This document shows, one piece after another, positions 8,330-29,151 of a stretch of DNA of 31,984 nucleotides. Position 1 is the stretch's first letter. Every line of letters starts with the position of its first letter. The notes under the pieces were generated by a model that was given only the letters and a program-made list of their open reading frames with translations, was not told the DNA's origin and searched no databases. This DNA comes from Paraspadella gotoi (lineage: Eukaryota; Animalia; Chaetognatha). The stretch is taken from positions 20,778,844 through 20,810,827 of the forward strand of contig CM119264.1 of the NCBI GenBank assembly GCA_051294375.1, in the 5' to 3' direction. A program made the translations under genes and the position numbers.

Positions 8330-8469
8330 AATTCCTACTTCACGCCCGCAAATTCGCGCGTTCAAACGTCACCCGTTCCGTGTGGTTCAACGTGGGATTG
8401 AAGAGGCTGGTTTTACAGGGCGCCACACCCGCAGCGGTGTCACCTCGTGGCGACAGCGAGACAGCATGT

Positions 8470-8550
8470 TCATGTAGTCCAAAGCTTTAGATCTGGCAGT
8501 AGGCCCATGCCTACAGGCGGGTTACCCGGTCCATCCCACTTTCTACATGA
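8470..8550 (-). ncRNA. Putative type-P5 twister ribozyme in BEL LTR (copy 1)
   Basis: UCAUGUAG aaa GUGG GA UGG accggg U^AA CCC GC cu GUAGGC augg GCCUAC ug CCAGA U CUA AAGC UUUGG a CUACAUGA. P5 8 bp, P3 6 bp, P4 5 bp, T1 CUA/UGG, T2 GC/GC. Predicted cut at 8524/8523. Confidence 0.72.
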
Positions 8551-8552
8551 CA

Positions 8553-8616
8553 ACCTCAGGGCTCGAACCAGGGACGCACATTGGGATGGTGCATTAGTCC
8601 ACTGAGCCACTGAGGC
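8553..8616 (-). promoter_or_regulatory. tRNA-derived Pol III internal promoter in BEL LTR (copy 1)
   Basis: A box TGGCTCAGTGG, B box GGTTCGAGCCC, acceptor-like GCCTCAG/CTGAGGT pairing; too short for a functional tRNA. Confidence 0.75.
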
Positions 8617-9259
8617 GCTGCGAAAGAAACAGCTTTAATCCATCTGTGGTGATAGGACCACCAGAGGATCTTCGTAGATAAAAATCTGAATGTCGAGACA
8701 GATTTTGAAGGAAAAGACGAGAGATATATTCAGACGTTTATTTTCACAATAATGTCCATAAAAAGTCCAGTAAAACTGTTATTGGGACGGACAATGTGTT
8801 TCTTAGAGAGCAAATCTAATAACTTGAGAAATGTCTCTATTTTCTTTCTCTCAATGACGACGGCCAAACAAGAGACCAGTAAAAATGCTCAACAGTCAGA
8901 TAAAAGACCGGTCAAATACAACTCAGAGCAAAAACGTTTGATAGAGAGGGAAAATTGAATTGCGAGGTATGACATTTAACACCCCCCGGGTCTAAACATA
9001 GTTTGGACTAAAAACTGACAATGTTATGTTTTGGATAAAAAGATTTTGATTGTAGAAATGTAAATTTAGGTTTGCAGTGGCTAACGAAATAACATTACGA
9101 AATTTCAAGCATTGAAAATTACTTCATGGTACTAGTTTAAAAGTCACCTGGTAAAACAAAATAAAAATGTTTGTTCTTAAAGTTAATCGTAAAGATATTA
9201 AACATAAATTATCTTGTTGGCGACGGCTTCTTGATATCACCGGATTATCCCGACGTCTA

Positions 9260-9570
9260 CTACGTCGCCTCTGCTTCGCCTGCATCATGATTCTTGTTAT
9301 CATTGACGGCGTTGCTTAGATTTTGAAAATACATCCGTGGCGGCAGCATTTCGTCCATGAAGGCATCGTGTAGAGACGTGTGATGTGGATCGTCACAGGC
9401 TTCACAAAGATGTTGAGATTGACAGTTCTTTGCGACGCGGCCCCCGCCTGAGACACCTAAAGCAGAGCTCGTGGTGGGCAGCAACGTCTTTTCGTAATCC
9501 AGAATCGGCTTGGCGAAAATTAGAGCACTGAGAGATAAAGTGTTTTTCATCACACAAAGTGCATTCCACT
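9260..9570 (-). pseudogene. gag: BEL/Pao Gag C-terminal zinc-knuckle region, frameshifted (copy 1)
   Basis: CTLCDEKHFISQC, CFRCLRRG[fs]RVAKNC, CEACDDPHHTSLH; an extra G in a G run splits the ORFs at 9402 and 9260. Confidence 0.85.
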
Positions 9571-11149
9571 NNNNNNNNNNNNNNNNNNNNNNNNNGTAAC
9601 AAAAGTATCGAAATAAGATGATGATTTAGATTATTTTAACCAGTTTTTCATATTCTATCCCCTCTAAGAGTCAAAAACTAAAAAAAGATATACTGATCCG
9701 AAAAGCTTAGTTCAAATTCCTTTAACCACCCTACCTTAGTTAGGCTTTCCCTAATACTAAGACAATAAAAGGTCAGCCGCTGCCGACGTCGGAAATAATT
9801 CTTTGTGGACTCAAGTCGCCAGTAATTATCATTATTTCGATGGTCTTCTACTTGTCCGGAGTTTACCTTTTTACAGAACTCACTAAAAATGCTCCGGCTT
9901 TTCTGGGCGATTTTTAAATAAACATTTGGTCTTGCATTTTCTCGGAACCTTGTTCCAGGCTTTCTTTCATTTCATTTTCTTCTCTTGGAAATCGCTGTAA
10001 ATGTAACACTTCGATTAAAATTTATTGCATTAAAACTTATAATATATATAAAAATAAAAATTAAATATCATTTCTCGACGCGTTATCATTATTGTATTGC
10101 AGCGATGAGACGTATCAACGATCAAATGAAAATTAAAATTCAACGAACTTAATAAAATCGACGATTAGAATACGTTTTTCTCTTTTTTTTTAAATAATTA
10201 ATTTCTTTAGTTTTATCCTTTTTTTTCAATTTTTAAATTATTCAAAATGTAAATAAAAGGAATTTAAGTAAGAATAACTTTAGAGAAATCTTGAAGGCCT
10301 GAAAAATTCTGATTTTGGACATAATGTCACAATTTAATCCACGTTGAAAAAAATTATTGACCTAACGTTTGACTCTTTGTTTTTTCTCAAAACTTTAATA
10401 TTTCGTCGACTTCAGCGATGGGGTGGGTTTCGGTTCATCGCACTCGTTATCGTCATGGACGGAGCAGTCGTGGAGGTGAATGAAAATAAAAAGAAATAGA
10501 GAGCGAAGAAGAAATACCAAGGTTCTCCCGCATCCACCTCAGCTCCTGAGCTGCGGGCCCAATCGCCCACGCCGCCTTCCCCGTCATCCTCGACATGGAC
10601 GGCGCCGCAGCCGACGTCGCGTCCCTCCTCATGCTTCTGCGCGCATCGTCCAGGGTAGCGGCTCCGCCTCATCGGCCGTCGACCACCGTCAGAGCGAGCG
10701 CCTCCGGCGCGATCAGCGGCTATCAACGCGAGACCGCGTCATAGAAACTGGCCCTCTCGACGACGAGACGAATTACGGCGAAGGCGAAGACGATTACGAC
10801 GAAAATTCCTAATCGTCGTAGGGGACGAATTTAATTCCGCGAACTTCCCCATCGAGGACCCGAATTCTCTTTAATGGGTTAAAACAACGCGACGCCTACA
10901 ACAGTTACAATATCCACGACGGTAATAACAACGAAAATAGCAATCTGCATCAATGACAATTTAGAAATTACATCAATAACAACAAAATTTCATTTCATAT
11001 TAAATTATTTTACAGTAAAAGCCATCAACAATTAAACTGATTTGAAAACATAATTTAATAATCAGGTAAATGAATAACGTTAATAAACTAACAGAATTCA
11101 TATAAATTAATCGAATCAACATAAAGTAAAAACAAAATAACAACAAAGA

Positions 11150-11810
11150 CGACAAAACTGCCATCTTCCTTTTGCCAGACACGACGGACTAAGCGACGTT
11201 CCCCAAAAGATTGCGTCCAAATGTTGGAATCGCGTCAGTTACACGGCGGCGACGCTGCGCCGGCGGCACAGGAGGCAGCGTCGCATCGACGGGCCGGCGG
11301 CCAGCTTGGAGACTTTCAGCGGCGTCGCCTAGTGGCGTCGCAAGCGGACGTTCTCGGCGTCGTCGAGAGGATGAATGATCGACTCCAAGAAGAGGTTGGA
11401 CAGTCCACTAGAGATATCTGTCTGTTTCTCTGCCTCGCCTTTCTGCCATTGCCTGTCTTTTCTTTTTATGAGTCAGTCTGTCATTTAAAAGTAAGTGGTT
11501 TACCAAGATGATTTGATGTAACCTTACCAAAAATTTTTTCCCTCCTTCACTAACAATAGGTAAGGCCAATTTGGTCAAAAAGTCCAAATGCGTTTCAATG
11601 CTTTCCCCCAGTCGCCCGACCCCGGCCAGAGTTCCTGGTGGCGCGGTCGAAAATTTCAAAGGTTCGGCCTCGTTCATTTCCTTGCCCGTGGACCGCTGAC
11701 GAATCTGCCAAAAGCGATTACGAGATGGACGAAGAATTGACGTGGGGAGGTTGAAGATGCCGTCAGGTGGCTGCATTCGAAGTGTAGGGCATTAATAATT
11801 TAAGGGTTTA
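11150..11810 (-). pseudogene. MED16: Mediator subunit 16-like C-terminal exons, frame-disrupted (pseudogene or sequencing errors)
   Basis: Ordered motifs KLLMP[fs]TLRMQPPDG..EPLKFSTAPPGTL..PLDDAENVRL..RRCLLC..W-T-Q-S-F-x3-R-L-V-R-R-V-W parallel the MED16 C-terminus as I recall it (QLLIPSLDWLPASDG..QPLRLQFGRAPTL..IDHLRRLHL..CTRC..WEQRWIKNCLCGGLW). In-frame stops and indels are present. Confidence 0.55.
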
Positions 11811-11884: not shown

Positions 11885-13210
11885 CATACGGGTATATCCC
11901 TTTGCTCACTGAGAAAATAACAAAGAGAGATGCATCATTGGTAGTCGCCATAAGTTTGTTGCCCCTACAAACTGGTTAGAGCCGAGTTTGACACCAAAAA
12001 AAATACGTTTATAGGTTCGCAACGAAGAGAGAAAGCAAAAGGAAAAGTTAAATTGAAAGGAAAGGAAAAGAAAATGAATGTTGCAATCTTACAGCTAAGG
12101 CACCAATCGTCGTATTCCTTATCTGCCAGCATCATTGGGCGGGAACTACTTCGGCGAAGGCAACGCCAACGCAGCGGCGCGCGAGTTTACACTTCTGGCG
12201 GGATCCACTCGCCGCCCATCACGTGTGGAAAAACTCCATTCCTGACAGAAACGTTGATCTTTGGATGGAATCTGCAAGAGTGTCTTCAACTTGATGTGAG
12301 CCTTTTTTTTCCTCGGATTAACTTTTTCCCCCCCCATTTTCTTCCCCATTTTCCAGCTTACTCATCCCTGGCAGGAGTGTTCAACACCGCTCAACTCTCT
12401 CCACACCCGTGTGGCCTCCTCGATCGCTGCCTTCGACTCCAACGGCGCAACCTCCAACCTGACGCAGTCGGCCAAGATCTTCGGTGTCGACGCAGTTGGC
12501 GCGGCAGGCGAATCCTTTGTCCCGGAGCTCCGTGTGAGAAAGGCAGACTTGTTTAGCTACGAAGGCACGAAGTAGTTCAATAATTTTCTTATAATACTAC
12601 AATAACGCTTTTACTTCATTCTTCTTTCCAATTATGAAATTTCTGAAATATAATGGAATTATTGCATTTCATTATTGTGATTACTGATCAGTGAGACTGA
12701 GGAGAGGAAAAAGAAGTGCCGAAACCCGGGATTGAACCAGGCGACCTTTAGATCTTCAGTTCTAACGCTCTCCCAACTGACTATTTCGGCGGGTTCTTTC
12801 CCGTAATAATAAAAAAAATTATCCTAATTCTTTTCTTCCCTCCCTTTCGCTGGTCCAGGTAACGGAAAGGCGAATACACGATTGGCCATGATGGTGTATG
12901 GAACGAGCAACGGAATGCTGGGAGAGAAAACCGAATGTGGCCATCGTGGCTGGGGATTGACTGTCATGGAAATTTAGGAAAGAATCCTCGACCACTTTTT
13001 CGGTCGGGAATTGGAAAGAAAGTGTGATTAAAAGGAAGGGGGAGAAAAAGAAGAGGAAGACAAGGGATAAGAATTATAGGGGAAGATAAGTAATATTGTT
13101 CCGTGATTGGGTTTTGATGTGGAGGGAATTCACCCTGCCTCAAGATTTTCACAATCATCATTAGTGATTCGTTGAATTGCCCTTGCCACTGGGGATGTCC
13201 CTCGCGTTTT
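11885..13210 (-). pseudogene. Candidate upstream exons of the same MED16-like gene
   Basis: GC-richer blocks with GTAAG/GTGAA donor-like ends; weak collinear matches TSPVARAIQRITNDD (~13200-13155) and PV..ATTND..SLLF (~11975-11910). Confidence 0.3.
12717..12790 (-). tRNA. tRNA-Phe: tRNA-Phe(GAA) with three single-base indels
   Basis: GCCGAAATAG-TCAGTTGGGAGAGCGTTAGAaCTGAAGATCTAAAGGTCgCCTGGTTCAATCCCGGGTTTCGGCA matches the canonical metazoan tRNA-Phe; TTTTT terminator 4 nt downstream. Confidence 0.92.
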
Positions 13211-13950: not shown

Positions 13951-15591
13951 GAGACAGGAGGAAGGCGTTTTTTTAAGAAGGAGACCGCCGATCGTAAGAC
14001 GCCCGGGATTATCAATTGATTAATTGGTTAATTATTTATAAATTAACAAACTAGCATACTTTTTTATATATTTAATTTTAAAAGCCATAATCGAGTAGTG
14101 AAACAGTTCACTATTCCAGTTAATAACGGACGGACGGACTCGGACTTCGATTTTTTCGCATAATTTTATCATAATTTTATGTTCAGACTATATTTTTAAG
14201 TGACTTCCCGACAAGTCCAACAAAAGTGAATTAGGTCGAGATCGTGCTGTATAAGCAAATCCGCACTTAAAAAAATTTAACCAAACAAAAACGTAAAGAG
14301 ACTTAAAACATTAAGAGGAAAGGTCATTCCAGCCATAACAATACGTAATCATTGATCTGTGTAGAGCTAAATATTATATTCGAGAAATACATTATAGTCA
14401 TCAGTAATCACAAAAAAAAAATAAGGTAATATTATATTGTAAACATTCTCCGTTTTCAATAATTTTTTTTAAATGGGTAAATAACAAAATTGTTCTATTA
14501 AATGGGTAAGCACATTTTCTAAAGATTTTGTTTTTTCCCAATCTGGTTACAAGTTATTAAATAAATTAAAAATTCTAGGGTAAAGAAGTTAAAACACGTG
14601 CATATGGCGATAATTTTTATAGAAGCGGGAGAATTAAGCAATTAATCTCGTTAGCTCTTTGGTTTTTTCCAAGTCATGAACAAAATTTTCAGGTTAAATT
14701 AGATGTAAAGAAATTTCGAGCCTACAATGAATTCTACACTGAATTTGCAAGAGTTGCATGCCTAAACACGACTGCAATAATATGAAATTAAAAAATTTGA
14801 TTAGCAATCTTAAAAACATTTGGTAAAAAATTGTAACTAGGAGAGACATTTGATAAACGCGTTCCAGTTAGAAAGAATTCAGGGTTAAAGTTTAAAAAAC
14901 ATTTCATTTTTCAAGGATACAAGTTGAAATTTTAAAAATGTCTCTCTATTACAATTTCCTAATTCAGTAATAAAAAATTCATAAAAAATATCAGGTGGAT
15001 TGGCCTTTTCGTTGACCTGCAACTCTTCAGATAGGTTTCTTTATTTTATATTATAATTAAACGATAATAAATGGGGTTAGAATGCATTTCAAATGCTTAA
15101 AGTGAATACATTTTCGGAATCGCCAGAGCTCAGGCTTCTGAATTGTACTCCATTTTAGCTATTTTAAAGTTGAATTGAATGACCCTTTTTCTTAAAAGAG
15201 ATACTGAAAGACAAAATATATACATTTTTTTATGTATAAATATCACATCCCTCGGTTTTAACGGAAAATCAATCTTCCCTTTCAATTTTTGGAGAAAAAA
15301 AATTGGTCTCACTCTAAGGACGATTTATTATAAATTTAAAGAAATAAGTTATAAAGTAAACAATTATAACCACTTTAGTTCTAAGAATAGTCAATGGCAA
15401 GGTGTATTACTTTTAAGAAATTCCTTTTTTCCTTCTATTACTAAATCGATTTTCAATGCAACTTTTTGAATTAGTTCATTGGGTTGTTGCACTGAAGCTT
15501 TTAAATATTTAATAATATATTGAAGAAGCTGGTTTTACAGGGCGCCACACACGCAGCGGTGTCACCTCGTGGCGACAGCGAGACAGCATGT

Positions 15592-15672
15592 TCATGTAGT
15601 CCAAAGCTTTAGATCTGGCAGTAGGCCCATGCCTACAGGCGGGTTACCCGGTCCATCCCACTTTCTACATGA
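15592..15672 (-). ncRNA. Putative type-P5 twister ribozyme in BEL LTR (copy 2)
   Basis: Same sequence as 8470-8550; predicted cut at 15646/15645. Confidence 0.72.
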
Positions 15673-15674
15673 CA

Positions 15675-15738
15675 ACCTCAGGGCTCGAACCAGGGACGCA
15701 CATTGGGATGGTGCATTAGTCCACTGAGCCACTGAGGC
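15675..15738 (-). promoter_or_regulatory. tRNA-derived Pol III promoter in BEL LTR (copy 2)
   Basis: Same A/B boxes as 8553-8616. Confidence 0.75.
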
Positions 15739-16381
15739 GCTGCGAAAGAAACAGCTTTAATCCATCTGTGGTGATAGGACCACCAGAGGATCTTCGTAGA
15801 TAAAAATCTGAATGTCGAGACAGATTTTGAAGGAAAAGACGAGAGATATATTCAGACGTTTATTTTCACAATAATGTCCATAAAAAGTCCAGTAAAACTG
15901 TTATTGGGACGGACAATGTGTTTCTTAGAGAGCAAATCTAATAACTTGAGAAATGTCTCTATTTTCTTTCTCTCAATGACGACGGCCAAACAAGAGACCA
16001 GTAAAAATGCTCAACAGTCAGATAAAAGACCGGTCAAATACAACTCAGAGCAAAAACGTTTGATAGAGAGGGAAAATTGAATTGCGAGGTATGACATTTA
16101 ACACCCCCCGGGTCTAAACATAGTTTGGACTAAAAACTGACAATGTTATGTTTTGGATAAAAAGATTTTGATTGTAGAAATGTAAATTTAGGTTTGCAGT
16201 GGCTAACGAAATAACATTACGAAATTTCAAGCATTGAAAATTACTTCATGGTACTAGTTTAAAAGTCACCTGGTAAAACAAAATAAAAATGTTTGTTCTT
16301 AAAGTTAATCGTAAAGATATTAAACATAAATTATCTTGTTGGCGACGGCTTCTTGATATCACCGGATTATCCCGACGTCTA

Positions 16382-16810
16382 CTACGTCGCCTCTGCTTCG
16401 CCTGCATCATGATTCTTGTTATCATTGACGGCGTTGCTTAGATTTTGAAAATACATCCGTGGCGGCAGCATTTCGTCCATGAAGGCATCGTGTAGAGACG
16501 TGTGATGTGGATCGTCACAGGCTTCACAAAGATGTTGAGATTGACAGTTCTTTGCGACGCGGCCCCCGCCTGAGACACCTAAAGCAGAGCTCGTGGTGGG
16601 CAGCAACGTCTTTTCGTAATCCAGAATCGGCTTGGCGAAAATTAGAGCACTGAGAGATAAAGTGTTTTTCATCACACAAAGTGCATTCCACTTTTGGCCG
16701 AAACGAATTATTTCTCTTTTTCGGTTTTGATTTTGACTTGATATTAGAAACGGGAACCAGACCTTGAGTTGGAGTCAGAGACAGGACTGGCAATGGAGGG
16801 AGACGGAGAG
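16382..16810 (-). pseudogene. gag: BEL/Pao Gag C-terminal zinc-knuckle region, frameshifted (copy 2)
   Basis: Three knuckles split over ORFs 16524..16793 and 16382..16675, with the same frameshift as copy 1. Confidence 0.85.
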
Positions 16811-17021
16811 NNNNNNNNNNTTATTATAGATTTAAATCTTTTCATCTTCAATATTATATACTGCAATATGTAAATTAGATTAAAGCATTTCTATATACTA
16901 ATTTGGATATTATAATGAGTACTATAATCTCATTTGCATATTGCAGTAAATCATAATGAAGTGGAAATTCAAACAAAATCCTAAATCCAAATGTAATAAG
17001 AAAATATCAAAGCTATTTCAA

Positions 17022-17520
17022 GATGAGAAGCCATATCTAAATTTTTAACTTACTATGATCGCACACTTTTGTAAAACTTTATCATAATTCATAATAATTT
17101 TTATTTAAAGAAAAACGGTAAGTCACAGCCAAACCTATAAAAGCGTAGTAGTTTTTATATAAAAACAGCGTGACGCCGACGACGACCACTCACGACGCCG
17201 CCGCCGACGACGACGACGATGACGACATCACAAAGAAGCTGACCCGAATCAATATCGAGCCTGAACCGGCTTCGCCGGTAGGCTCGATAAAAACAGTCGT
17301 GCAAATGATTATATTTTTTTATCGAGACAGACCGGGCGAAGCCGGTCCTGGCTCTATAATAATTCGCTTTTGCTTCTTTGTGCCGTAGTCGTCGTCGTCG
17401 TCGTCTTGACTTGACTTGAAAGGCATTCGTCGTCGTCGTCTGCGTCACGCTTTTTTGCAATCATGGCTTGTAAAAGTATGATATCATAGGAAGTTGAAAA
17501 TTTATATATGGCTTCTAATC
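17022..17520. mobile_element. Tail-to-tail inverted pair of DINE-1/HINE-like element ends
   Basis: Arms are diverged reverse complements (GAAGCCATAT..., AAAAAGCGTGACGC, GAC repeats, CACAAAGAAGC); each ends in a CCGGCTTCGCC-centred hairpin plus A run (17254-17293; 17314-17357). Confidence 0.65.
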
Positions 17521-17742
17521 ATCAAGATCTTTAAAATTCCCATGTTTCATATCAATATTCCTATTTGTTTATGTTTATTTACAAAAACAAAACCTTTTAA
17601 TTATATGTCTCTTACCCTCTCTCTTTCTTTTAATTATATGTCGCTCTCTCTCTCTCTCTCTCTCTTTTTCTCAGTCACTGCTTCTTCTGATTTGTCTAAA
17701 AACGAGTTCTGGCTCTGCAGCGTCATGCAGCGTCGTCCAGCT

Positions 17743-17787
<45 letters not shown>

Positions 17788-17804
17788 TTTTTAACAAAAA
17801 AATG

Positions 17805-17837
<33 letters not shown>

Positions 17838-18119
17838 GAGCTCACCAATATTGAAGACGACGCCGTCAGCAGTTCACCATCCGTTCTCCCTTTTTTTTCT
17901 TTTTATTCCGCTTTTCTTGTATGAATCACCAGGGCGCGGACCAGAGTCCTTCACATTGGGAGGAGTTCGCGCTACCTCGGGCGCCATAGGAACTTTGACT
18001 TATTACTTGGACGAGTAAAAGGGTTGTTGAGCTTCTCTCTCTCTCTCTTAATAATATGTCGCTCTCTCTCTCTCTCTTTTTTTCCGTCGCTGCTGCTTCT
18101 GATTCCAGCGGCTGTCAGG

Positions 18120-18840
18120 CTTCTCTCTATCTCTCTTTTAATATTATGTCGCTCTCTCTTTCTCTCTTTTTTTCTTCTGAATAGGGGTAGCCCCTCTCAA
18201 TCGGTGAGTCAAAAATTTAGTATAGGAACATGCTCAAACGAAAATTTATGCATTTTTAAGTATACTTTCAATGTACAAAAAATTTCTTATATGGCTCTAT
18301 ACCCAAATATTTATTTTTTAATATTTATCTATAGAAAGGAAAAGAGCTTGGCCCTACTCAGATTCGTCAAAAAACGAGTTCAGCTCTGCAGCGGCGGTCC
18401 AGCGGCTGTCCAGATTCTCTTCTATCTCTCTTTTCTCTCTCTCTCTCTCTTCTTTCTCTCTCTCTCTCTGATTATTTTTTCTTCTGAATAGGGTAGCCCT
18501 CTCAAAGGGGTGAGTCAAAAATTTAGTATGAGAACATGCTCAAATAAAAATTTATACATTTTTAATTATACTTTCAATGTACAAAAAATTTCTAATTTGT
18601 TTCTATACCCAAATATTTATTTTTAATATTTATTATAGAAAGGAAAGGAGTTGGACCCTATTCAGATTCGTCTAAAAACGAGTTCAGCTCTGAAGCGGCT
18701 GTCCAGCGGCTGTCCAGCTTTCTCTGTCTCTCTCTGTCTCTCTCTCTGTCTCTCTCTCTTGTCTCTCTCTCTGTCTCTCTCTCTGTCTCTCTCTCTGTCC
18801 GATCTCTTGCGTGATCGTGCGTTTTTCGAAAAATTCTGAT
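18120..18840 (+). repeat. Tandem ~310-bp units of a dispersed repeat with CT tracts
   Basis: GGGTAGCCC..GTGAGTCAAAAATTTAGTAT..CAGATTCGTC..AAACGAGTTCAGCTCTG repeated at about 18183 and 18491. Confidence 0.75.
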
Positions 18841-19101
18841 TATTTTTCTCCTTCTAAAAACTTTTATTATCGCCATTTATTCCGCGCTTTTTTCTCAATA
18901 CAAAATCACAAATTTACATCCGAGTTTTTCGTGGATTTACTTTACGGCTCTGAGATTTAGTCAGAATATGTTTTATGTTTGGAAACAAAGTTCGTACACA
19001 CACACACTTCTCTCTCTCTTCTCTCTCTCTCTCTCTCTCCTCTCTTCTCTCTCTCGCTCTCTCTCTCTCTCCCATACACGCGTTTGTTTGTTTTATTTAC
19101 G

Positions 19102-19329
19102 ATGAATGACTCATCGCGTCAATGAATGACTATCATTACATCAATCATTTGGTTATCATCGCATCAATCATTTGGTTATTTCATTGCATCAATATTTGGT
19201 TATCATCGCATCAATAAATACTATTACATCAATCAATCAATTACTATTACATCAATCAATCAATTACTATTACATCCATCAATTAATCAATTACTATGGT
19301 TATCATCGCATCAATGAATGACTATCATC
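19102..19329. repeat. ATCATCGCATCAAT minisatellite, second array
   Basis: Same unit as 364-612, likewise preceded by a CT tract. Confidence 0.85.
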
Positions 19330-21395
19330 TCAAAAATAAAAAAAACAATTTCTATCTTTTTTTTTCGGTTTATGGTTTAACTACCAAACAATGTATCTAG
19401 TTATCAAGTTCCATTAGTGAGGCAGTGAGGAAGTTGAAAATGTTGTGTCCATTTTCTTTGTTTCATATCGATTTTTCATTAATTTTCTTTGATAGTAAGG
19501 TCTGTCGAGATCTTTATACTTTTAAGATTTTTTTCGAAGTATTTTTCTTGGTTTTGCTTTATAAATTGATTTTCCATTTCTGGCAATGTTCTTTGAAATC
19601 ATAATTTTTTTACATCAAAAGAAAGGTCAATCGCCATATTTATCTAAAATGCTTTATTTCGCTGGCAAGAGATATTATTATTATTGAATCACATAATATG
19701 CTGTAATAAATAAATCATAAGTATCGTAATCACCATCTTAAACATCGTCGTCGTCATCAACATCATCCGCTGTTAACCATCATATTTTTTCTTATCAAGA
19801 ACCAAATCTGACTTGATTTCTTCTCTTACTTTTAACTCCTTCGCCTCCGCCTTTTTCTCCCCCTCTGCCACATCATCTTCTTCTTTCCTCACTTCCTTCT
19901 CACCTTCCTACCTCTCTTCCCCTTCCCCTTAATCCACCCGCCGTTGTTGTTATTAATATTTGCTTTTCTGCTTCTCGAGAGAAATTGTGAACTCATTCGG
20001 TTTTAGCTTCCGGCGAGGAAGAACCTGGGAAGGAAAGGGTAGGAGAAAAGGAGAGGAGGAGAAAGAGGGAGCCGAAGAAATAAATGGCGATTCAGACTCT
20101 TTTTTTTTTTTTAATATATATTCCCTATTTTTTTACACGAGAACTTTGGGTTAAGCGAAATATATTTTCTTTTCGGGATTTTCTTCATATTTTGCTCCGT
20201 TACTCCGTCGAGTCTAAGAACTGTCTACGGAGTCATTTATCTCTTTAGTTAAATATGCTTTCATAAATTATGTGAAAAAGGTTTAATCTGTGGGAACAGC
20301 GCTAGCTCAAATCGTACTAAAAATATTAACTTTTTATATTTCATACCATGTTAGTTTTACTAATGGTCACTTTTTTTTTTAAATATTCTCGATGCGTTAA
20401 TGCTTTATGCATCAGACATACAATCACACAGCCAGACTGATAGTCAGACAGAAAGACAGATAGACGAACAAAGACAGGAAACCGAAAAGGAAGACCGAGG
20501 CACATCGAATTTTTCCAGAGAAAATCTCTTCTTCAAAAAAGCGTCGCCTCGGAGCCGAAAAAAGGGGAAGATAATCTTAGCGATAAAAATGAATCAAAAT
20601 GAGTAAAGTGGGTAAAAAATGGAGCAAAATGGAGACAAAGTGAGAGGCGCCTAAAAAAGTTTTGAAAGGATTTTGGAAAGGACCTCGGAAGGCGTTTGGA
20701 AAAGATTCGAGATGTGAGGAAGTTTGAAAGGCGACGAAGGCGAGGAAATCGGAAAGGAACTGATTTGAAGGGGGAAAAGTTGGTCGGAAAAAGTACATAA
20801 AGAAATGTGGATATTTAAGGGAATTTAAAAGTCTAATTACGTTTAATTAAGGAAACTATGTCTTTCTATTGTCATTTGATAAAAACATCGTGTTTATTCG
20901 TTTTTTTACATAAGTATATATATAAGAGTTCTGTTGGACTGCTCTTTCGGAGGTTGTTATGGTATCAGCAAACAATGGCGACAGAACAAATAACAGAACC
21001 CTTTCAGTAAGTACTAAACAAGTTCAAAACTGGCTCACGACTGCAACCGCAGTCGCAATTGTTGCAGGAACAAAAGCTGGCTGAACCTTGTCGTCATCGC
21101 AACAACACCGTCGATGAATTGAAAAAAAAAATGATTTCCTCTCCTTTAGTTTCCTCGTGATGATGAAATCGGAGATGACTCTGGGGGAACGAATTTTCGG
21201 GAGGAAATTAGAAAAATAATACCTCGCAGGGAGGAAAGGAGGAAGGGAGGAGAAAAGGAGAAAGGAAAGGAGAGAGAAAAGAGAGGAAGTTGAAAGGGAA
21301 ATAAGGAAAAGGAACGGAGATAAGAGAAAGAATGTTTATGTAGAAATAACAAAGACGAAGAGAACGAAAACTAAGACATGAAAAGAATAAACAAG

Positions 21396-21466
21396 ATCGA
21401 CAGACCGACAGGCCGACCGAAAAGTGACTTGAGTTGCTCAGCGAGTACTTGCGGCGCAACTAAAAA
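21396..21466 (+). mobile_element. DINE-1/HINE-like 3' end
   Basis: GACA/GACC repeats, hairpin AGTTGC..GCGAGTACTTGC..GCAACT, then AAAAA; paralogous to 27158-27246. Confidence 0.6.
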
Positions 21467-21921
21467 TGGGGTGTTTAAAAATAAAGAAATACTGAAGGAA
21501 AAAAACAAAAAAAGGAAAGAGAATGCGTTCCATGAAATAAATCCAATATATTGAGGATGGAAATATTGAAAGAAAAAACTTGGAAATGTACTAAGGAGAG
21601 AAAAGAAGAACATAAATTTAAATGTCTGTAGCGCCGCAATGACTTTTTGAGCCCGTCTTTTATTCTTAAGGCCAGAGATCACTCAAACAAGAATTGCATA
21701 AAGCTTTATACAAATTGTTTTAATGCAAAAGAAGTATATTTCCTTTGTCTTTCAAATAAAATAACTTTAAATTTTACTAAGGTTCAACTTCAAGAGGCAC
21801 CCAAAAATCGGGCAATTTTTTTTAACGGTAAACTTTAAAAATTTCATTCAATACGATAGTCATTTTTAAATTCGAATCTTTTTATTTAAAATTAACATCA
21901 GCTACCTCAGTGTAGTAATAG

Positions 21922-23125
21922 TGTGGATAAGGCGCTAAGTGGGCAGAATATGACTATCCGTAACTTCTATAACCCCCTCAAGCAGCCATGGAACGGGTCA
22001 TGGGTTTTGAACCAGGCTTGAGGGTTTTCCACGCCCCCAAGGCGGCTTACAGCCGTTCTCACACTTCCCGCAGGGTAGGTACCGGGTTGGGATTGCACCC
22101 AGTACCTAGTGGTCATGAGCTGATGGCTTTACTCAATGAGTCACCGGGTCACGACTGAAGGTGTCATGCTTATAGGCGGTGTGAACCTAGGCAATGCCCG
22201 ACTACGGTTCCAGTGGGATTCCTCCCACACGGGATTCCTCCCACACGGGATTCCACCCACACGAGATTCCTCCCTCACGGGATTCTACCCCAATGGATTC
22301 CTCCTTATGGAATTTCTCCCACACGAGATTCCTCCCAAAGGAATTCCTCCCACACGGGATCCTCCCAAAAGAATTAGTCCCACACGGGATTCCTCCCAAA
22401 TAAATTCCTCCCACATTGGATTCCTCCCACACAGGATCCTCCCAAAAGGATTCCTCCCACACGGAATTCCTCCCAAATAAATTTCTACTACATAGGATTC
22501 CTCCCACATGGGATTCCTCCCCATGGAATTCCTCCCATGCGGGATTCCTCCAATGAGGAATCCCATGGGGTGGAATCCCGTGTGGGAGGAATCCCGTGTG
22601 CGAAGAATCCAGTTGGGAGGAATCTCGTGTGGGAGGAATTCCGCGTGGGAGGAATCCCGCGGGGAGGAATCCCGTGTGGGAGCAATCCCATGGGAAGGAA
22701 TCCCGCGTGGGATGAATCCCATGTGGGAGGAATCCAGTTGGGAGGAATCCCGTGTGGGAGGAATACCACGACCACCCCCGATTCCATGCGGCGCAGATTG
22801 TAACCCATCCTGCACTGCTTGCTTCTAGTGGAGGGAGGGGAGCAATCCTCAGCAAGTCCATGGGCCTGGAATCAGAAGGTTGGAATACGCTCGCCATGAT
22901 GGGCTCACCAGTGTGGATAAGGTGCTAAGTGGGGCTGAACAGTGCTATCCGCAACTTCTTTAACCCTCTCTAGCAGCCATGGAACGGGTCCTGGGTTTGG
23001 AACCAGGCATGAGGGTTTTCCACACCCCCAAGGCGGCTTACAGCCATCCTCATGTTTCCCGCAGGGTAGGTACCGGCTTGGGATTGAACCCAGTACCTAG
23101 TGGTTATGAGCTGATGGCTTTATAG
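21922..23125 (-). mobile_element. Older disrupted copy of the tRNA/twister TRIM
   Basis: LTR 21922-22205, foldback insertion, internal region ~22785-22911 with the same PBS, and a second LTR from 22912 that breaks off near 23122. Confidence 0.9.
22206..22784. mobile_element. Foldback-type insertion built of ~15-16-bp GGATTCCTCCCACACG repeats
   Basis: Units run forward to 22550 and inverted from 22555 around a CAAT loop; interrupts the TRIM at its LTR/PPT junction. Confidence 0.8.
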
Positions 23126-23289
23126 GACTAAGCTCTGATGAAAACAGCCAGAGGTTTTTTTAATATATTCTTATACCGTAGAATGCTGGCAATATTGCTT
23201 TTGTTAAGTTTCAAAAAAATCCGACCATAAATATAGAAAATATTAACCAAAATCTTTGGAAAATCCGCCCCTTCTTTGGTAGAGCCAAA

Positions 23290-23600
23290 CTTTGTCAATG
23301 GGGTGGGTCAGAAGTTTGATTTGGGAACTTTTCCAAATGAAACCAAATGAAACTGAAAAAACTTTCAATGGACCAAATTTTTTTAAATGGCTAGAAGCAT
23401 TAGTAATTAATTTTTTAATATTTATTTATAGATAGGAAATATCACAAATTTTATTTTGAATTTTGTATTTTTAAAAGAAGATTCAAATAGCTTATGAAAG
23501 GTTATCTACACAAAGTATAATTCTTTTTTCACTATTTTCATGATAAGTGGATTAAAATTGGGAAAAACCTTAAAAAATCATCATCATCCGATAATTTTAG
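23290..23600 (+). repeat. Diverged copy of the 18183-family dispersed repeat
   Basis: TCAATGGGGTGGGTCAGAAG...GATTCAAATAGCTTATG...CACAAAGTATAATTCTTTTT; matches 25620-25945 in reverse. Confidence 0.65.
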
Positions 23601-24092
23601 CTGTTTTTACCAATGTTTAGTAATAAAACATCAAAATTGTAAAAAGTTGTAATTATATTTTTTGCTTAACTTTTTAAGCTTTATTAGAATCAATTAAAAA
23701 AACTTAAAATATCAAAACAAATTTTTGACATTATATAGCAATTTAATAATATTTATTAGCGAATAACTCAAGGCTCAAAACATTTTTGCAAATAAAAATT
23801 TTAACACAATAATTAATACTAATAATGGATTAGTTTAATGCTGTTCCCATTAAAATTTGAATTCGGTCGGCTACCGCTATCTTTGGTAGATTTTTGCCAT
23901 AAAAGATTTTTCCCGAATTTGACTCCTGGTTGAAAACTCTTAGAATTCCGATCGTTAGCTCCTCTTACTTTTACTTTAATTAAAATTTCACCAAATGGAC
24001 TAATTCACTTTACCATGATCGTGTGGATAAGGCGCTACGTGGGCTGAAGATGACTGTCCGTAACTTCTATAACCCCCTCTCGCAGCCATGGA

Positions 24093-24172
24093 ACGGGTCC
24101 CTGGGCTTGGAACCAGGCTTGAGGGTTTGCCATGCCCCCAAGGCGGCTTACGGCCGTCCTCACGCTTCCCGT
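24093..24172 (-). ncRNA. Putative type-P5 twister ribozyme, TRIM 3' LTR
   Basis: ACGGG aa GCGU GA GGA cggccg U^AA GCC GC CUUGGGGG cauggcaaa CCCUCAAG CCUGG U UCC AAGC CCAGG ga CCCGU. P5 5 bp, P3 8 bp, P4 5 bp, T1 UCC/GGA, T2 GC/GC. Predicted cut at 24150/24149. Confidence 0.75.
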
Positions 24173-24179
24173 AGGGTAG

Positions 24180-24251
24180 GTACCGGGTTGGGATTGAACC
24201 CAGTACCTAGTGGTCATGAGCTGATGGCTTTACTCAATGAGCCACCGGGTC
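24180..24251 (-). promoter_or_regulatory. tRNA-derived Pol III promoter, TRIM 3' LTR
   Basis: A-box-like TGGCTCATTGAG and B box GGTTCAATCCC at tRNA spacing; CTCATGA anticodon-loop-like segment. Confidence 0.7.
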
Positions 24252-24499
24252 ACAACTGAAAGTGTCATGATTCTAGGCGGGGTGAACCTAGGCAATGCCC
24301 GACTACATGCCCCCCAGATTGTAACCCACCCTGCACTGCTTCCAGTGGAGGGAGGGGAGCAATCTTCAGCTATATCAAGGGCCTGGAATCAGAAGGTTGG
24401 AATACGCTCGACAGGATGGGCTCACCAGTGTGGATAAGGCGCTACGTGGGCTGAAGATGACTGTCCGTAACTTCTATAACCCCCTCTAGCAGCCACGGA

Positions 24500-24579
24500 A
24501 CGGGTCCCTGGGCTTGGAACCAGGCTTGAGGGTTTGCCATGCCCCCAAGACGGCTTACGGCCGTCCTCACGCTTCCCGC
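24500..24579 (-). ncRNA. Putative type-P5 twister ribozyme, TRIM 5' LTR
   Basis: Same fold; the two differences from the other LTR give G-U pairs (P5, T2). Predicted cut at 24557/24556. Confidence 0.7.
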
Positions 24580-24586
24580 AGGGTAG

Positions 24587-24658
24587 GTACCGGGTTGGGA
24601 TTGAACCCGGTACCTAGTGGTCATGAGCTGATGGCTTTACTCAATGAGCCACCGGGTC
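24587..24658 (-). promoter_or_regulatory. tRNA-derived Pol III promoter, TRIM 5' LTR
   Basis: Same A/B boxes as 24180-24251. Confidence 0.7.
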
Positions 24659-24778
24659 ACAACTGAAAGTGTCATGATTCTAGGCGGGGTGAACCTAGGC
24701 AATGCCCGACTACAATCGTATCATATTAAAATAACCAAATAAAATGTAAAGAAAAATTTTGAAAGCTCCTCAGACATA

Positions 24779-24803
24779 TGAACCTAGGCAATGCCTGACT
24801 ACA
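24779..24803 (-). repeat. Isolated 25-bp TRIM LTR terminus
   Basis: TGAACCTAGGCAATGCCTGACTACA, one mismatch to the LTR end. Confidence 0.85.
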
Positions 24804-25619
24804 CTAGTACCCAAAACCATTCTTGTTATGTAATTGGATCAATTAACGATGAAGACATAAACATTTATGTAGAGAGAATGTAGAACATATTTGTAATGTT
24901 ATTTTTACCAAAAAAGTATGACAAAAATTGTACAATTTTTAAAAGTGAAAGAAATTCGTCCATTTGCATCTGCAGTTGGGTCCACTGAGATAGAGACGCT
25001 CAATGGAGCCATAGACGGTCACTGATTCCACAGATGGACCATCGTTATGCTCTGCCCTTGTTATTTAGTTTCTGTCCCCCATATTCAAAATTGGTTTTGA
25101 AGCTTGAACCGTTTATCACAGAAGAAAAAAAATATAGACAAAAACCGTTTGAAAAAAAAATTAAACTAAAATTATTTTTGATAAGTATGGAAAGGTTGGA
25201 GAAATTCTAGGAAAGGGATTTTGGAAAATGTTACTCGTTTTCAAGATATTTAGATTTTAACGCTAAATATTTTATTATTATTTTTTTTCTTATGAAGAAA
25301 AGTGAATTTGGAAAATCCCTTTAATAGAATAAGGGACATTGACCTTAAGTAGCCATAGCCGATGAAATTTAAATGCTAATGAATACAACGTTAAAATAAT
25401 CTATCATGAGCATAGATTATAGTATTAAAATATTTGTTGTCAAAAATTATTTTTTCGGAGGGTACGAGCCTACTTAAAATTATTAAATTACTATATAAAG
25501 CAAAACAATTTTTTAATGGGTTCTGTTAGAGCATAAAAAGTTAAACAAGAAATATAATTACAGCTTTTAAAAATTCTTACGTTTTCTTAGTAAAAATTTA
25601 AAAAAACTAATAAAATCAT

Positions 25620-25945
25620 CAAAAGATGATGATGATGACAATTTTTTATGGTTTTTCTTTTTTTGACCTACTTATCATAAAAATATTTAAAAAAGAATTA
25701 TACTTTGTGCAGACAACTTTTTATGAGCTATCTGAATCTGGTCTTAAAATTTAAAATTTCTAAAAAAAATTTTTGACCTTTCTTATCTATAAATAAATAT
25801 TAAAAAAATAATTACTAGGGTATAGAGCCATATAAGAAATTTTTTGTCCATTTAAGGTATTCTTAAAAATGTCTAAATTTTCGTTTGAGCTTGTACTCAT
25901 TCTAAATTTTTGACTCACCCCATTGAGTGCGGCTACCCCTACCTT
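25620..25945 (-). repeat. Inverted copy of the 18183-family dispersed repeat
   Basis: Reverse complement reads GGGTAGCCGCACTCAATGGGGTGAGTCAAAAATTTAG... Confidence 0.75.
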
Positions 25946-26479
25946 AAGTAAAATTATGTTAAATTTCATAAAAATCCGCTTCGCCATTTGGGCTGCAACT
26001 TTTCCGATAGGTTTCTTTTATTTTATATAGTAATATAAATATATATATATATATAAATATAAATATTGGTTGTACCAATTTCATTTCATAAAATTTGAAA
26101 AAAAGCTAACGAGTTTGAAAAAATATATTTTCGGAATCGTCTGGACCTCTGCTTTCCAAATCCAAACTTTGTTTCACCCTATTTATAACTTTTGGCGAGT
26201 GATCCCAGGCCTTAGTAGTTTTACGATTTCCTGAAGGTGGCGCGAGCAGTCCAAGTATACCGTCAGAAAAAAAGCCTTCCGCCTGGCGGGTGGCATGGGG
26301 TGTGGGCATGGGTCATACCTATGGATAACCTCTGGGGGTAGGCAATAACTGCTGCATTAGGAAGTTACTGTTTGAAATAAAAATTTATAAATTAAAAAAA
26401 AACTTTTTAAACTATTTTGATATTTTAAACAAAATATAAAAGTTATTATAATAATTATTAAAATAAAGTGAAAATAAAT

Positions 26480-26646
26480 TTAAAAATAGTGATAAAAGTG
26501 AAACAAAAAATTAGGCACATGTTTTGACTCTGATTAGAGCTTTCTTCAGCGTAAAAATATTGCTTTGCACAAAATATGCTAAAGAAGGATCATCAGAGCC
26601 AAAAGACATCTGTAATTTTTTGTTTCACTTTTATCATTGTTTTTAA
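26480..26646. repeat. Short inverted repeat with degenerate hammerhead-like cores (Penelope-like remnant)
   Basis: Arms TGATAAAAGTGAAACAAAAAATTA / TAATTTTTTGTTTCACTTTTATCA; minus strand CTGAAGA-aa-GCTCT-aatc-AGAGT-C-AAAA-CATGT. Confidence 0.55.
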
Positions 26647-27157
26647 ACAGTAAAAAACTTTGTAACTAATTTTTTTTATAAAATATTATTTTTATATAAT
26701 ATTACTTTTAAAATATTATTAACATTTTTGTAAAATAATTTTATTTTAAATATATAATATATAAATACAATAAAAATAAAAAAAATTAAAAAAAGTGAGT
26801 GAAAAAAAGATTTGGTAAAAAATAGATTTTAAAATACCGGCTTCTGTTGTTTAAAATTACCCTTTCTGTTTTCTTTCATCCTAGTGGGAAGCTTTTTTTT
26901 TCTACCCCCTAGGGTAGAAATTAGAAATTAGCATATAGAGCGCCCCTGTCAAGGTCAAAAATCCATTCACCAAAGGGTAGCCCTTTGGGGTTACCCCTAG
27001 GTATATTGCATTAAGGATATCCCTAAATGATTAAAAATCTATTCCCCCAGGGTAGACTGCCGGCGACTGCCCGCGACGTAGACTGCCCGCGACAAGGGGA
27101 AGCCTTTTTGAGCGACGGTATATCTCGAGCAGTCACTTAGATTTTAGGTCTGAGTGG

Positions 27158-27246
27158 GACAGACCGACGGACAGACATATAGACCGACCGACCGAAAAGT
27201 ATCTCACAGAGTTGTTCCGCGAGTACTCGCGGCGCAACTAAAAAAT
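27158..27246 (+). mobile_element. DINE-1/HINE-like 3' end
   Basis: GACA/GACG/GACC microsatellite, perfect palindrome CCGCGAGTACTCGCGG (27217-27232), then CAACTAAAAAA. Confidence 0.65.
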
Positions 27247-28099
27247 GAGAAAATAGAGAGAACAAAGACCAAACCCTATACTTAAAAAAAGTGAATGAGC
27301 AAAAAAAGAAAAAAGCAAAAAAGAAAGAAAGAAAAATTGAAATTGAAAAAGGAGAAGACGCGAAGAAAGTTAATGAAGGAAACGCGAATCTTCACGAGAA
27401 ATTTTTTTTTCTCGCCGAAGTTTTTTAACAGAAACGCGACGTCGTCGCTGAGAATTATAGGAAATATAAAACTCGGTCGTCGTCGTCGTCGTCGTCGTCG
27501 TCTACATCATCGCCATTAGTATCACGGGTTCAGTGAATGATCGTTATTAACAATGCCATTTTTATTTTTGTTTAAAAAATTATATTTGTCTCTCTTTGCC
27601 GTCGTCGTCACTATTGCGATTATCATTTTACCCTCATCTTTATTAGCCTAATCATGATCAATTAGCGCCGTAATAACCATAATAATAATAATCATCATAA
27701 TAATCATAATCATAAAGATCATCATCATCATCATCATCGACATTCCTTTTCTCGCCGTAAGTTCTTCCTCGATATACTTTCTCCATCGCCAAGGAGTCGT
27801 TTCCGTCACGCCCCTATCTCTGGGGAACGCGCTTCGAGCGGGGTAAAGGGGGGAGACGAAAGACGGTGACGACCCCCACGGAGAATTCGGGGGTAGAATC
27901 GGTCGAGGAGCTTGGGAATACCACCGCATCACACAGATGATAATGGGAGAATCTTTGGAAAGGGGGGTGACGAGGGGGGAAGGAGTCCGATTGGCTGAGG
28001 GAAAACGCGGTCTCGGGGTCCGCCTATCTCTGGGGGTAATTCCCACATCCAAACGTCTCCCAACGGTCGAAGGCGGCGCAGCGGAAAGTCATCTCGACA

Positions 28100-28167
<68 letters not shown>

Positions 28168-28605
28168 TCTCTTCTCATTCTCTCTCTCTCTCTCTCATTC
28201 TCTCTTCTCTTCTTTCTCATTCTCTCATCTTCTCTCTCTCTCTCTCTCGGGGACGTCGCTCCATTATCGTCGAATCTGGACTCAAACATTTTTCACGGGG
28301 GAAAGAGAAAAGGCGTCATCGTCGACGACGACGACGATAATGATGACGTTGTGTGTGAGCTTGTGCTTGTGTGGAGAGTTTTTATGTGAAAATTTTCAAA
28401 TTACTTGTTTCACTATTTTCTATTTTTATATTTTATGAAGGATTTAATATTTAATCTATATTATTTAATCAAATATATATTTTTTATTAAAAATGTTTTA
28501 TTTATCTAATAATTCAATTCGGGATGGGGAAGTCTGTGTTGTCTTCTGGAAACAGAGGGAGCATCTATACAACACAAGACATGCAAAAATAAATGAAAAA
28601 TAATA

Positions 28606-29151
28606 CTATCTAGAAAAAAGGTATATCCCATAATTTAGTTATTCAATAAAAAGTATTTAAAATATGGGTAAAACATTCTCAATATTTGATATGTCCTTCC
28701 TCGGCATCGACTACTTCCTGTATTCATCTGGGCATGCTCTTATACAGCAAATTGAGGTATTACAGTTAAATGTGTTTCCACATCTTTAACGCAATTTTTT
28801 TCGGCCCCGATATTAATGTTGAGCGTCTTTCCCTTTTTTCTGAGAGCTATAATAGCACTTTTCTGAAAAAAAAAGGTGCAAGGCCTTTAGCATTGCCAAA
28901 TTAAAAAAAATTAATAAACTTTTTGAAATTAAAACAAATAACAGAATACTAAAAATAGTGGAAAACCAAATGAATTTTTTTACCATTTTTCATTAGAAGT
29001 CACCTGCCTGTAACTTCTGAACGAATTTACCTACAAAAAAATGGAAGGATGCTACTGAAAAAAAATTTAATGTTGATTCGGAAACATTCTAATTTTTTTT
29101 AAATAAAAAATATTCTTTATTAAAAATGTGATATACTTTTTTTCTAGATAG
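28606..29151 (-). mobile_element. Internally deleted Tc1-like DNA transposon
   Basis: TIRs CTATCTAGAAAAAA(G/A)GTATATC flanked by TA on both sides; minus strand keeps N-terminal KSAIIALRKKGKTL and C-terminal LYKSMPR*IQEVVDAEEGHIKY*. Confidence 0.85.

Follow-up and report, generated by a model that had tools for sequence, protein, structure and literature searches.

We analysed a window of 31,984 nt from the chaetognath Paraspadella gotoi (contig CM119264.1, positions 20,778,844 to 20,810,827 of the forward strand), and all positions given here are those of this stretch. Read on the minus strand from 9570 down to 8399, the locus presents the end of a gag, its stop codon, an AT-rich spacer, a G6 run, the start of an LTR, an AATAAA signal and a cassette with tRNA-like and twister-like parts. 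The features are these:

9260..9570, minus strand: 3' end of a BEL/Pao-type gag, cut on its upstream side by an N gap at 9571-9595.
8988..9259, minus strand: AT-rich non-coding spacer from the gag stop to the PPT; a pol remnant was looked for here and none was detected.
8982..8987, minus strand: G6 run, the PPT core, directly before the LTR start.
8666..8981, minus strand: part of the BEL LTR upstream of the insertion, 316 nt, starting TGTTAAA, with AATAAA at 8737-8742.
8666..8669, minus strand: left copy of a 4-bp target-site duplication (TSD), ATCC.
8399..8665, minus strand: inserted cassette, 267 nt, interpreted as the likely solo LTR of a Helenus-type TRIM; both ends placed by read joints and by alignment with a TRIM LTR.
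8555..8616, minus strand: tRNA-like part, with an A box at 8599-8609 and a B box at 8561-8569.
8470..8550, minus strand: twister-like fold of the P5 type, with cleavage predicted between 8524 and 8523 and a linker at 8525-8530.
8395..8398, minus strand: right copy of the TSD, 4 bp, ATCC.
8379..8394, minus strand: probable remainder of the BEL LTR, judged from the sequence, with possible CA ends at about 8381 or 8379.
15519..16810, minus strand: second copy of the composite, ending at an N gap, flanked by no direct repeat and probably a misassembly.
24022..24714, minus strand: complete sister TRIM, with LTRs at 24428-24714 and 24022-24307, a 120-nt internal part and the TSD CGAT.

The gag fragment carries a first zinc knuckle at 9525-9563, a broken second knuckle starting at 9464 and a third motif of the Pao type, C-X2-C-X3-HH-X3-H, at 9368-9406; the stop codon follows 35 residues past the third motif. 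BEL/Pao gags have two CCHC knuckles and a Pao-specific third motif, C-X2-4-C-X3-4-HH-X3-4-H (PMC4580426), a pattern that we found here, though split over two frames and with knuckle 2 incomplete. The initial annotation had described a triple zinc knuckle, and the Cys/His knuckles are indeed present, but not in a single frame: one frame encodes knuckle 1 and then the beginning of knuckle 2, a different frame encodes the rest of knuckle 2 with the third motif, and neither frame supplies the His of knuckle 2. Because the His is missing in either frame, programmed frameshifting at the break was rejected as unlikely. Contigs from the sequencing runs X1, X4, X5 and X9 matched the broken stretch without any difference, and we therefore take the frame break to be real.

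When the unaltered 81-residue gag frame was used as a query, it retrieved 15 protein relatives (E 3e-10 to 9e-4). DUF1759 was present in 2 of these and an aspartyl protease additionally in 1, and in relative P0015 the protease begins 48 residues after the third motif. The full triple-knuckle pattern was found in 4 of the 15 relatives and the third motif alone in 3 more (7/15 in total). The query itself contained no Pfam BEL domain, Pfam returned nothing meaningful on the gag frames, and a word-indexed search for relatives among longer proteins gave no significant match (0/131 candidates). Between the gag stop and the PPT we detected no domain or pol-like frame for protease, RT, RNase H or integrase, and a Pfam search of 9596-11800, 2.2 kb beyond the gap, located no upstream gag, pol remnant or 5' LTR. 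The fragment has in common with BEL/Pao (Belpaoviridae) the two CCHC-type knuckles with a third motif, DUF1759-bearing relatives and an LTR that starts with TG, and is unlike that group in its broken frame, its incomplete knuckle 2 and its lack of protease, RT, RNase H and integrase before the PPT. The gag-bearing element is BEL/Pao-derived, pol-less and broken, either a non-autonomous or a deleted derivative. In plants, LTR elements that encode only a gag go by the name TR-GAG.

The spacer, about 270 nt long and 68% AT, leads from the stop at 9260-9262 to the G6 run at 8982-8987 and to an LTR that starts with TGTTAAA at 8981; in contigs of related LTRs, the match breaks off at the corresponding base of the second copy, 16103. 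The order proposed initially (stop, about 270 bp, PPT, LTR) was confirmed, and the reading as the end of a BEL/Pao gag from which pol is missing ahead of the PPT was supported. The cassette begins 71 nt past the AATAAA of the BEL LTR. Beyond the insertion, the LTR probably runs on for a few bases and ends in a CA at about 8381 or 8379. LTRs usually end in the pattern YNYAACA (PMC3601003), which the end of the cassette does not fit and the sequence near 8381/8379 fits only loosely. On their upstream side both copies of the composite run into N gaps, with no 5' LTR for comparison.

The second copy, at 15519-16692, is 99.83% identical to the first over 1174 nt, and its only two differences, at 8405 and 8429 of the first copy, fall within the last 31 nt of the cassette. 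Its two flanks read ATCC and ATAT, with another high-depth repeat adjoining. Since the gag lies at single-locus depth (see below), the second copy is most simply, and probably, a misassembly. A segmental duplication was rejected as its origin, as the flanks differ at the cassette end. The sequences at 15000-15517 and 16821-17405 are AT-rich repeats of very high depth, probably MITE-like, with palindromic segments at 16840-16967 and 17206-17405; one member of this family hosts another copy of the cassette.

The ends of the cassette were taken from read joints at 15787 (X1) and 15521 (X4), both of which enter one AT-rich repeat at 17059-17061. Read together, across the two runs, these joints would mark another cassette copy with a 4-bp duplication. 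Mapped onto the first copy, the ends fall at 8665 and 8399, and the four bases outside each are ATCC. The chance of an exact 4-nt match at fixed ends is about 0.005, a value that rises several-fold once some 3 nt of uncertainty in the ends is allowed for, since contig ends also fall at 15783-15785 and 15518-15523. As the 4-bp direct repeat flanks the cassette, we read the CA at 8399 as the end of the insert and not of the BEL LTR. The cassette begins with TC in this copy, carries roughly 50 nt of leader sequence ahead of its tRNA-like part, ends with CA and contains no run of four T. The initial annotation had the cassette fill the last ~220 nt of the LTR; it does lie downstream of the AATAAA, but it measures 267 nt and appears as an insert with its own repeat rather than as the LTR end. 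The competing reading that the annotation itself had named, an adjacent insertion, is in substance what we found.

Read depth was taken from Logan contigs of 4 of the 9 listed runs (X1, X4, X5, X9; 3 studies), as a sum over contigs that does not give copy number and in which two hemizygous loci could mimic one. The gag and spacer lie on one contig, with a depth of 30.8 in X1, 236-263 in X4 and 6-12 in X5; long contigs at other loci have depths of 25-37 in X1, mostly 178-249 in X4 and mostly 14-20 in X5. The gag-3'UTR region is therefore at single-locus depth in these three runs, and no related gag-plus-spacer family was visible at 85% identity in the contigs of the runs examined. The body of the LTR reached 165-361 in X1; this depth comes from relatives with about 90% similarity, and their match ends at 16103 (equivalent to 8981). 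The cassette is roughly a thousand-fold deeper than the gag region, at 108,000-124,000 in X1, about 505,000-536,000 in X4 and 15,000-29,000 in X5, and the same order holds in X4, X5 and X9. Contigs from three runs carry the cassette between unrelated flanks and without the BEL LTR (X5 record 18, X1 record 4, X4 record 11), the first of these being 582 nt long and matching only 15518-15785. The LTR-cassette junction and both right-hand flanks are spanned by no listed contig. The cassette is a free, abundant repeat, and its occurrence apart from the BEL element, raised as a question in the initial annotation, is borne out.

We then compared the cassette with the element at 24022-24714, which consists of a 287-nt LTR, a 120-nt internal part that starts with a PBS-like TGG and ends in a G run, and a second LTR, within a CGAT duplication. 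The element starts with TG and ends with CA, and each of its LTRs contains a tRNA-like part and a twister-like fold. The cassette aligns with this LTR from end to end, through the leader, A box, B box, twister-like part and CA end (global score -1 against a shuffle mean of -47, reached by 0/1000 shuffles; local score reached by 2/1000 shuffles). On the strength of this end-to-end alignment, the cassette is likely a solo LTR of a Helenus-type TRIM family sister to the element at 24022-24714. No LTR-internal-LTR copy, PBS or PPT of the cassette's own family was seen in the window or contigs, so its status as a TRIM rests on the sister element. Rfam found no tRNA at the cassette at E<=10, and ARAGORN made no call there.

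Several other repeats and one gene lie in the window. A second, decayed copy of the sister TRIM family occupies 21921-23130 (minus strand), with a partial 5' LTR and damaged twister pairs; an array of inverted 15-16-nt units (~22207-22776) interrupts it close to the PPT. Long inverted repeats at 23358-23879 and 25350-25941, about 73-87% alike, frame the complete sister TRIM; they have relatives at 18182-18648 and are possibly the arms of a non-autonomous DNA transposon. An 18-nt tandem array lies at 660-1180, and a dispersed 22-nt minisatellite family is represented at 344-620 and 19009-19354. A tRNA-Phe gene at 12716-12790 (minus strand) was called by ARAGORN and by Rfam (33.4 bits), with a slightly irregular alignment.

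Helenus elements are defined as TRIMs whose LTRs are tRNA-like; in animals they produce 4-bp duplications, they often occur as solo LTRs, and their helpers are probably Gypsy elements (PMC10886601). The present LTRs resemble these Helenus TRIMs/TRIMp3 in their A and B boxes, a tRNA fold that would be non-functional, the 4-bp duplication (ATCC for the cassette, CGAT for the sister TRIM), common solo LTRs and size range, and the sister TRIM shares the non-coding LTR-PBS-PPT-LTR plan and a length under about 1.3 kb. With regard to TG...CA termini, the sister TRIM has both, and the cassette has the CA end with a TC start. Unlike Helenus, the present LTRs carry a twister-like fold after the tRNA part: the available portion of PMC10886601 has no occurrence of the word twister and one of ribozyme, in a reference, and searching its consensus file for twister motifs did not turn up such a core. 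In the supplement of that paper, two wasp LTR consensus sequences, Helenus-2_SyJa-LTR and Helenus-2_SyUm-LTR, seem by eye to contain the core boxes of the hammerhead consensus downstream of the tRNA-like part, a feature that the main text does not mention.

To describe the twister-like fold, we parsed both LTR families as a P5-type permutation, in the order P5, AAA/AA, P2', GA, T1', six bases, UAA, P2, GC, P3, G, P4, U-T1-AA-GC and P4. In the sister TRIM one such fold occupies 24095-24172, with a predicted cut between 24150 and 24149. The elements of a type P5 twister were found, namely the UAA cut site, the GA, the L4 sequence U-NNN-AA-GC, pseudoknots T1 and T2, stem P4 and P5 termini. Between the cassette and the sister family, 13/13 core pairs are kept, 5 with changes on both sides and 2 with a change on one side. 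The cassette copy has one G-U pair in T1 and one in P4, and at these sites (15604 and 15611) nearly all other copies in the contigs carry the letter that gives G-C. A twister descriptor, written after the sequences had been viewed, matched 3 places in the window, 0/5000 shuffles of either LTR and none of 50 whole-window shuffles; of the 4 sister LTR copies it matches 1, the other 3 having damaged pairs. A P1-type twister with downstream partners was dropped by eye, since the T1 partner fits upstream only. Together, these features lead us to predict a P5-type twister ribozyme in the LTR cassette.

Stems P3, P4 and P5 form in the minimum free energy structure of the cassette. P2 has 3 bp and a bulge against an expectation of 4 bp, its 5' strand being one base short, with a pair probability of about 0 when pseudoknots are left out; in the sister LTR, P3 loses to another fold (0.04-0.13), and the fold z-scores are weak (-1.8 and +0.45). 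The position of P1 is taken by the 6-nt linker at 8525-8530, too short for a P1 hairpin. This linker is self-complementary in all copies (5/5), with the central palindrome CCGG in the cassette and GGCC in the sister family (about 0.06 each by chance), which hints at possible cleavage as a dimer of two LTR copies. Natural twisters tested tolerate loss of P1 and bulges or deletions in P2 (PMC5408937 and PMC11662667). Rfam gave only chance matches on the cassette and no twister at E<=10, and the sister TRIM scored 17.3 and 15.8 bits against a cut-off of 37.6. Of the tRNA-twister cassette as initially annotated, the A and B boxes and a twister-like fold stand, without a tRNA call by ARAGORN or a match in Rfam.

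The closest known counterparts are the type-P5 twister (Rfam RF02684) and the S. mansoni twisters of Perere-3, which show the same order, AAA-P2'-GA-T1'...UAA-P2-GC-P3-G-P4-U-NNN-AA-GC, and whose P3 base, in the Sma sequences of Table 1 of PMC8501958, is nearly identical. Unlike these counterparts, the present folds have a short P2, a self-complementary linker in place of P1, and both P3 and P5; they fall below the Rfam cut-off and lie within an LTR rather than at the 5' end of an RTE element. The exact cassette motif had 0 matches in metagenome contigs, and a degenerate motif covering the two families had 0 in viral contigs and 5 in metagenome contigs. These 5 were rejected as chance matches, having no downstream P4 partner, no tRNA boxes nearby, no likeness to the window and no Rfam match.

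Taking the evidence together, we think it probable that the composite consists of the end of a frame-broken BEL/Pao gag followed by the PPT and 3' LTR, and that the cassette, likely a solo LTR of an abundant Helenus-type TRIM with a predicted twister, was inserted separately into the far end of this LTR. By itself, the composite is likely an ordinary nested insertion. Alternatively, the cassette could be a tRNA-headed, SINE-like retroposon with a twister, resembling the Schistosoma hammerhead SINE and placed in the LTR by target-primed reverse transcription. The very high depth, the A and B boxes, the TC rather than TG start and the lack of a visible internal region would agree with this, and SINEs with a promoter and a ribozyme do exist (PMC6765202). 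However, tRNA-derived SINEs start with the tRNA head, end in a tail and have a longer, variable duplication, whereas the cassette has its ~50-nt leader, a CA end, no tail and a 4-bp duplication; longer duplications are also described for metazoan non-LTR retrozymes (PMC7229834), and the similarity to the LTR of the complete TRIM runs end to end, both termini included. We consider a SINE origin unlikely. The captured SINE-like cassette of the initial annotation survives as a captured tRNA-plus-twister unit, one that looks like a TRIM LTR rather than a SINE.

We hold it very unlikely that the cassette is a true part of the LTR in a replicating gag-only BEL derivative, with the two copies as independent recent insertions. 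In its favour, the two copies share the CA end and have different flanks, and the stop 35 residues past the third motif, just before a protease would start, is as in a tidy gag-only element. Yet the 4-bp repeat surrounds the cassette in the first copy only, the gag-3'UTR is one contig at the depth of other single loci (X1, X4, X5), the gag frame is broken and both copies end in N gaps, and the two differences between the copies are confined to the final 31 nt of a high-copy repeat, a place at which assembly can jump from one track to another. The cassette's own duplication within the LTR, its very high depth as a free repeat and the single-locus depth of the gag-3'UTR speak against its having become the U5 of a persisting family, and the same duplication and depth evidence leaves an intermediate between a BEL element and a Pol III TRIM unsupported. 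With no sign of a replicating gag-only family that has a ribozyme in its LTR, the anticipated paradox of cap removal does not arise. Finally, both joins of the BEL LTR to the cassette could be products of assembly, with the direct repeat arising by chance, given a gapped, short-read-style assembly, a repeat of thousand-fold depth and no contig across the junction. The 4-bp repeat nevertheless sits at ends fixed from other loci and the left junction is identical in both copies, and we hold this account to be very unlikely as well.

Under the nested-insertion reading, the cassette would have arrived by integrase-type insertion, either directly as a solo LTR or in the form of a complete TRIM from which LTR-LTR recombination afterwards left a single LTR. 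In the standard LTR cycle, the U5 of daughter elements derives from the 5' LTR. Here the poly(A) signal of the 3' LTR precedes the cassette by 71 nt, which would place the cassette in U5; since daughter elements do not receive this segment from the 3' end, the composite would be a dead end that passes on nothing heritable. In the parent TRIM, the tRNA-like boxes of the 5' LTR would direct initiation by RNA polymerase III, and transcription would continue into the 3' LTR with no T4 run in the way (none is present in either sister LTR or in the internal part). The twisters of both LTRs would then cleave, perhaps after pairing with each other via the palindromic linkers to act as a dimer, and this double cut would free an RNA of unit length (407 nt for the sister TRIM). 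The unit could be ligated into a circle and copied into DNA by the reverse transcriptase of a Gypsy-type helper, along the lines proposed for plant retrozymes (PMC4918200); an RtcB-type ligation appears in PMC7229834.

Plant LTR retrozymes (PMC4918200) are alike in being non-coding LTR elements with a ribozyme per LTR, PBS and PPT, a 4-bp duplication, solo LTRs and a predicted unit-length RNA after double cleavage. The present elements differ in having a twister-like fold instead of a type III hammerhead, an animal host, a tRNA-type promoter and a shorter length. Metazoan retrozymes described so far are without LTR, PBS or PPT (PMC7229834), and Rfam gave no hammerhead match in the cassette or window. 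Since their ribozyme-like part is of the twister type, the present elements may work like retrozymes, yet they are not members as defined. In the open literature, as distinct from subscription journals, Repbase reports and bioRxiv supplements, we found no twister in a TRIM or LTR element, and the combination of a tRNA-type promoter with a predicted twister was not found described for animal LTR mini-elements. Tentatively, and with considerable reserve, we propose that LTR mini-retrotransposons of at least two abundant families exist in this genome, each family joining a Pol III promoter and an active twister in each LTR; that cleavage would occur only as a dimer of 5' and 3' LTRs, the palindromes CCGG and GGCC standing in place of P1; that the resulting RNA of ~400 nt would circularise and serve as template; and that the flagged cassette would be one solo LTR of what may be called animal LTR retrozymes with twisters.

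Hammerhead-bearing LTR elements are known in plants, and Helenus TRIMs with tRNA promoters have been described without ribozymes. An animal TRIM that combines a tRNA promoter with a twister would link retrozymes and Helenus, and would give twisters a role in LTR-type mobilisation. It would also offer a short natural construct for asking whether a palindromic P1 makes cleavage depend on transcription of both LTRs, and we suggest that published Helenus LTRs be screened for ribozymes.
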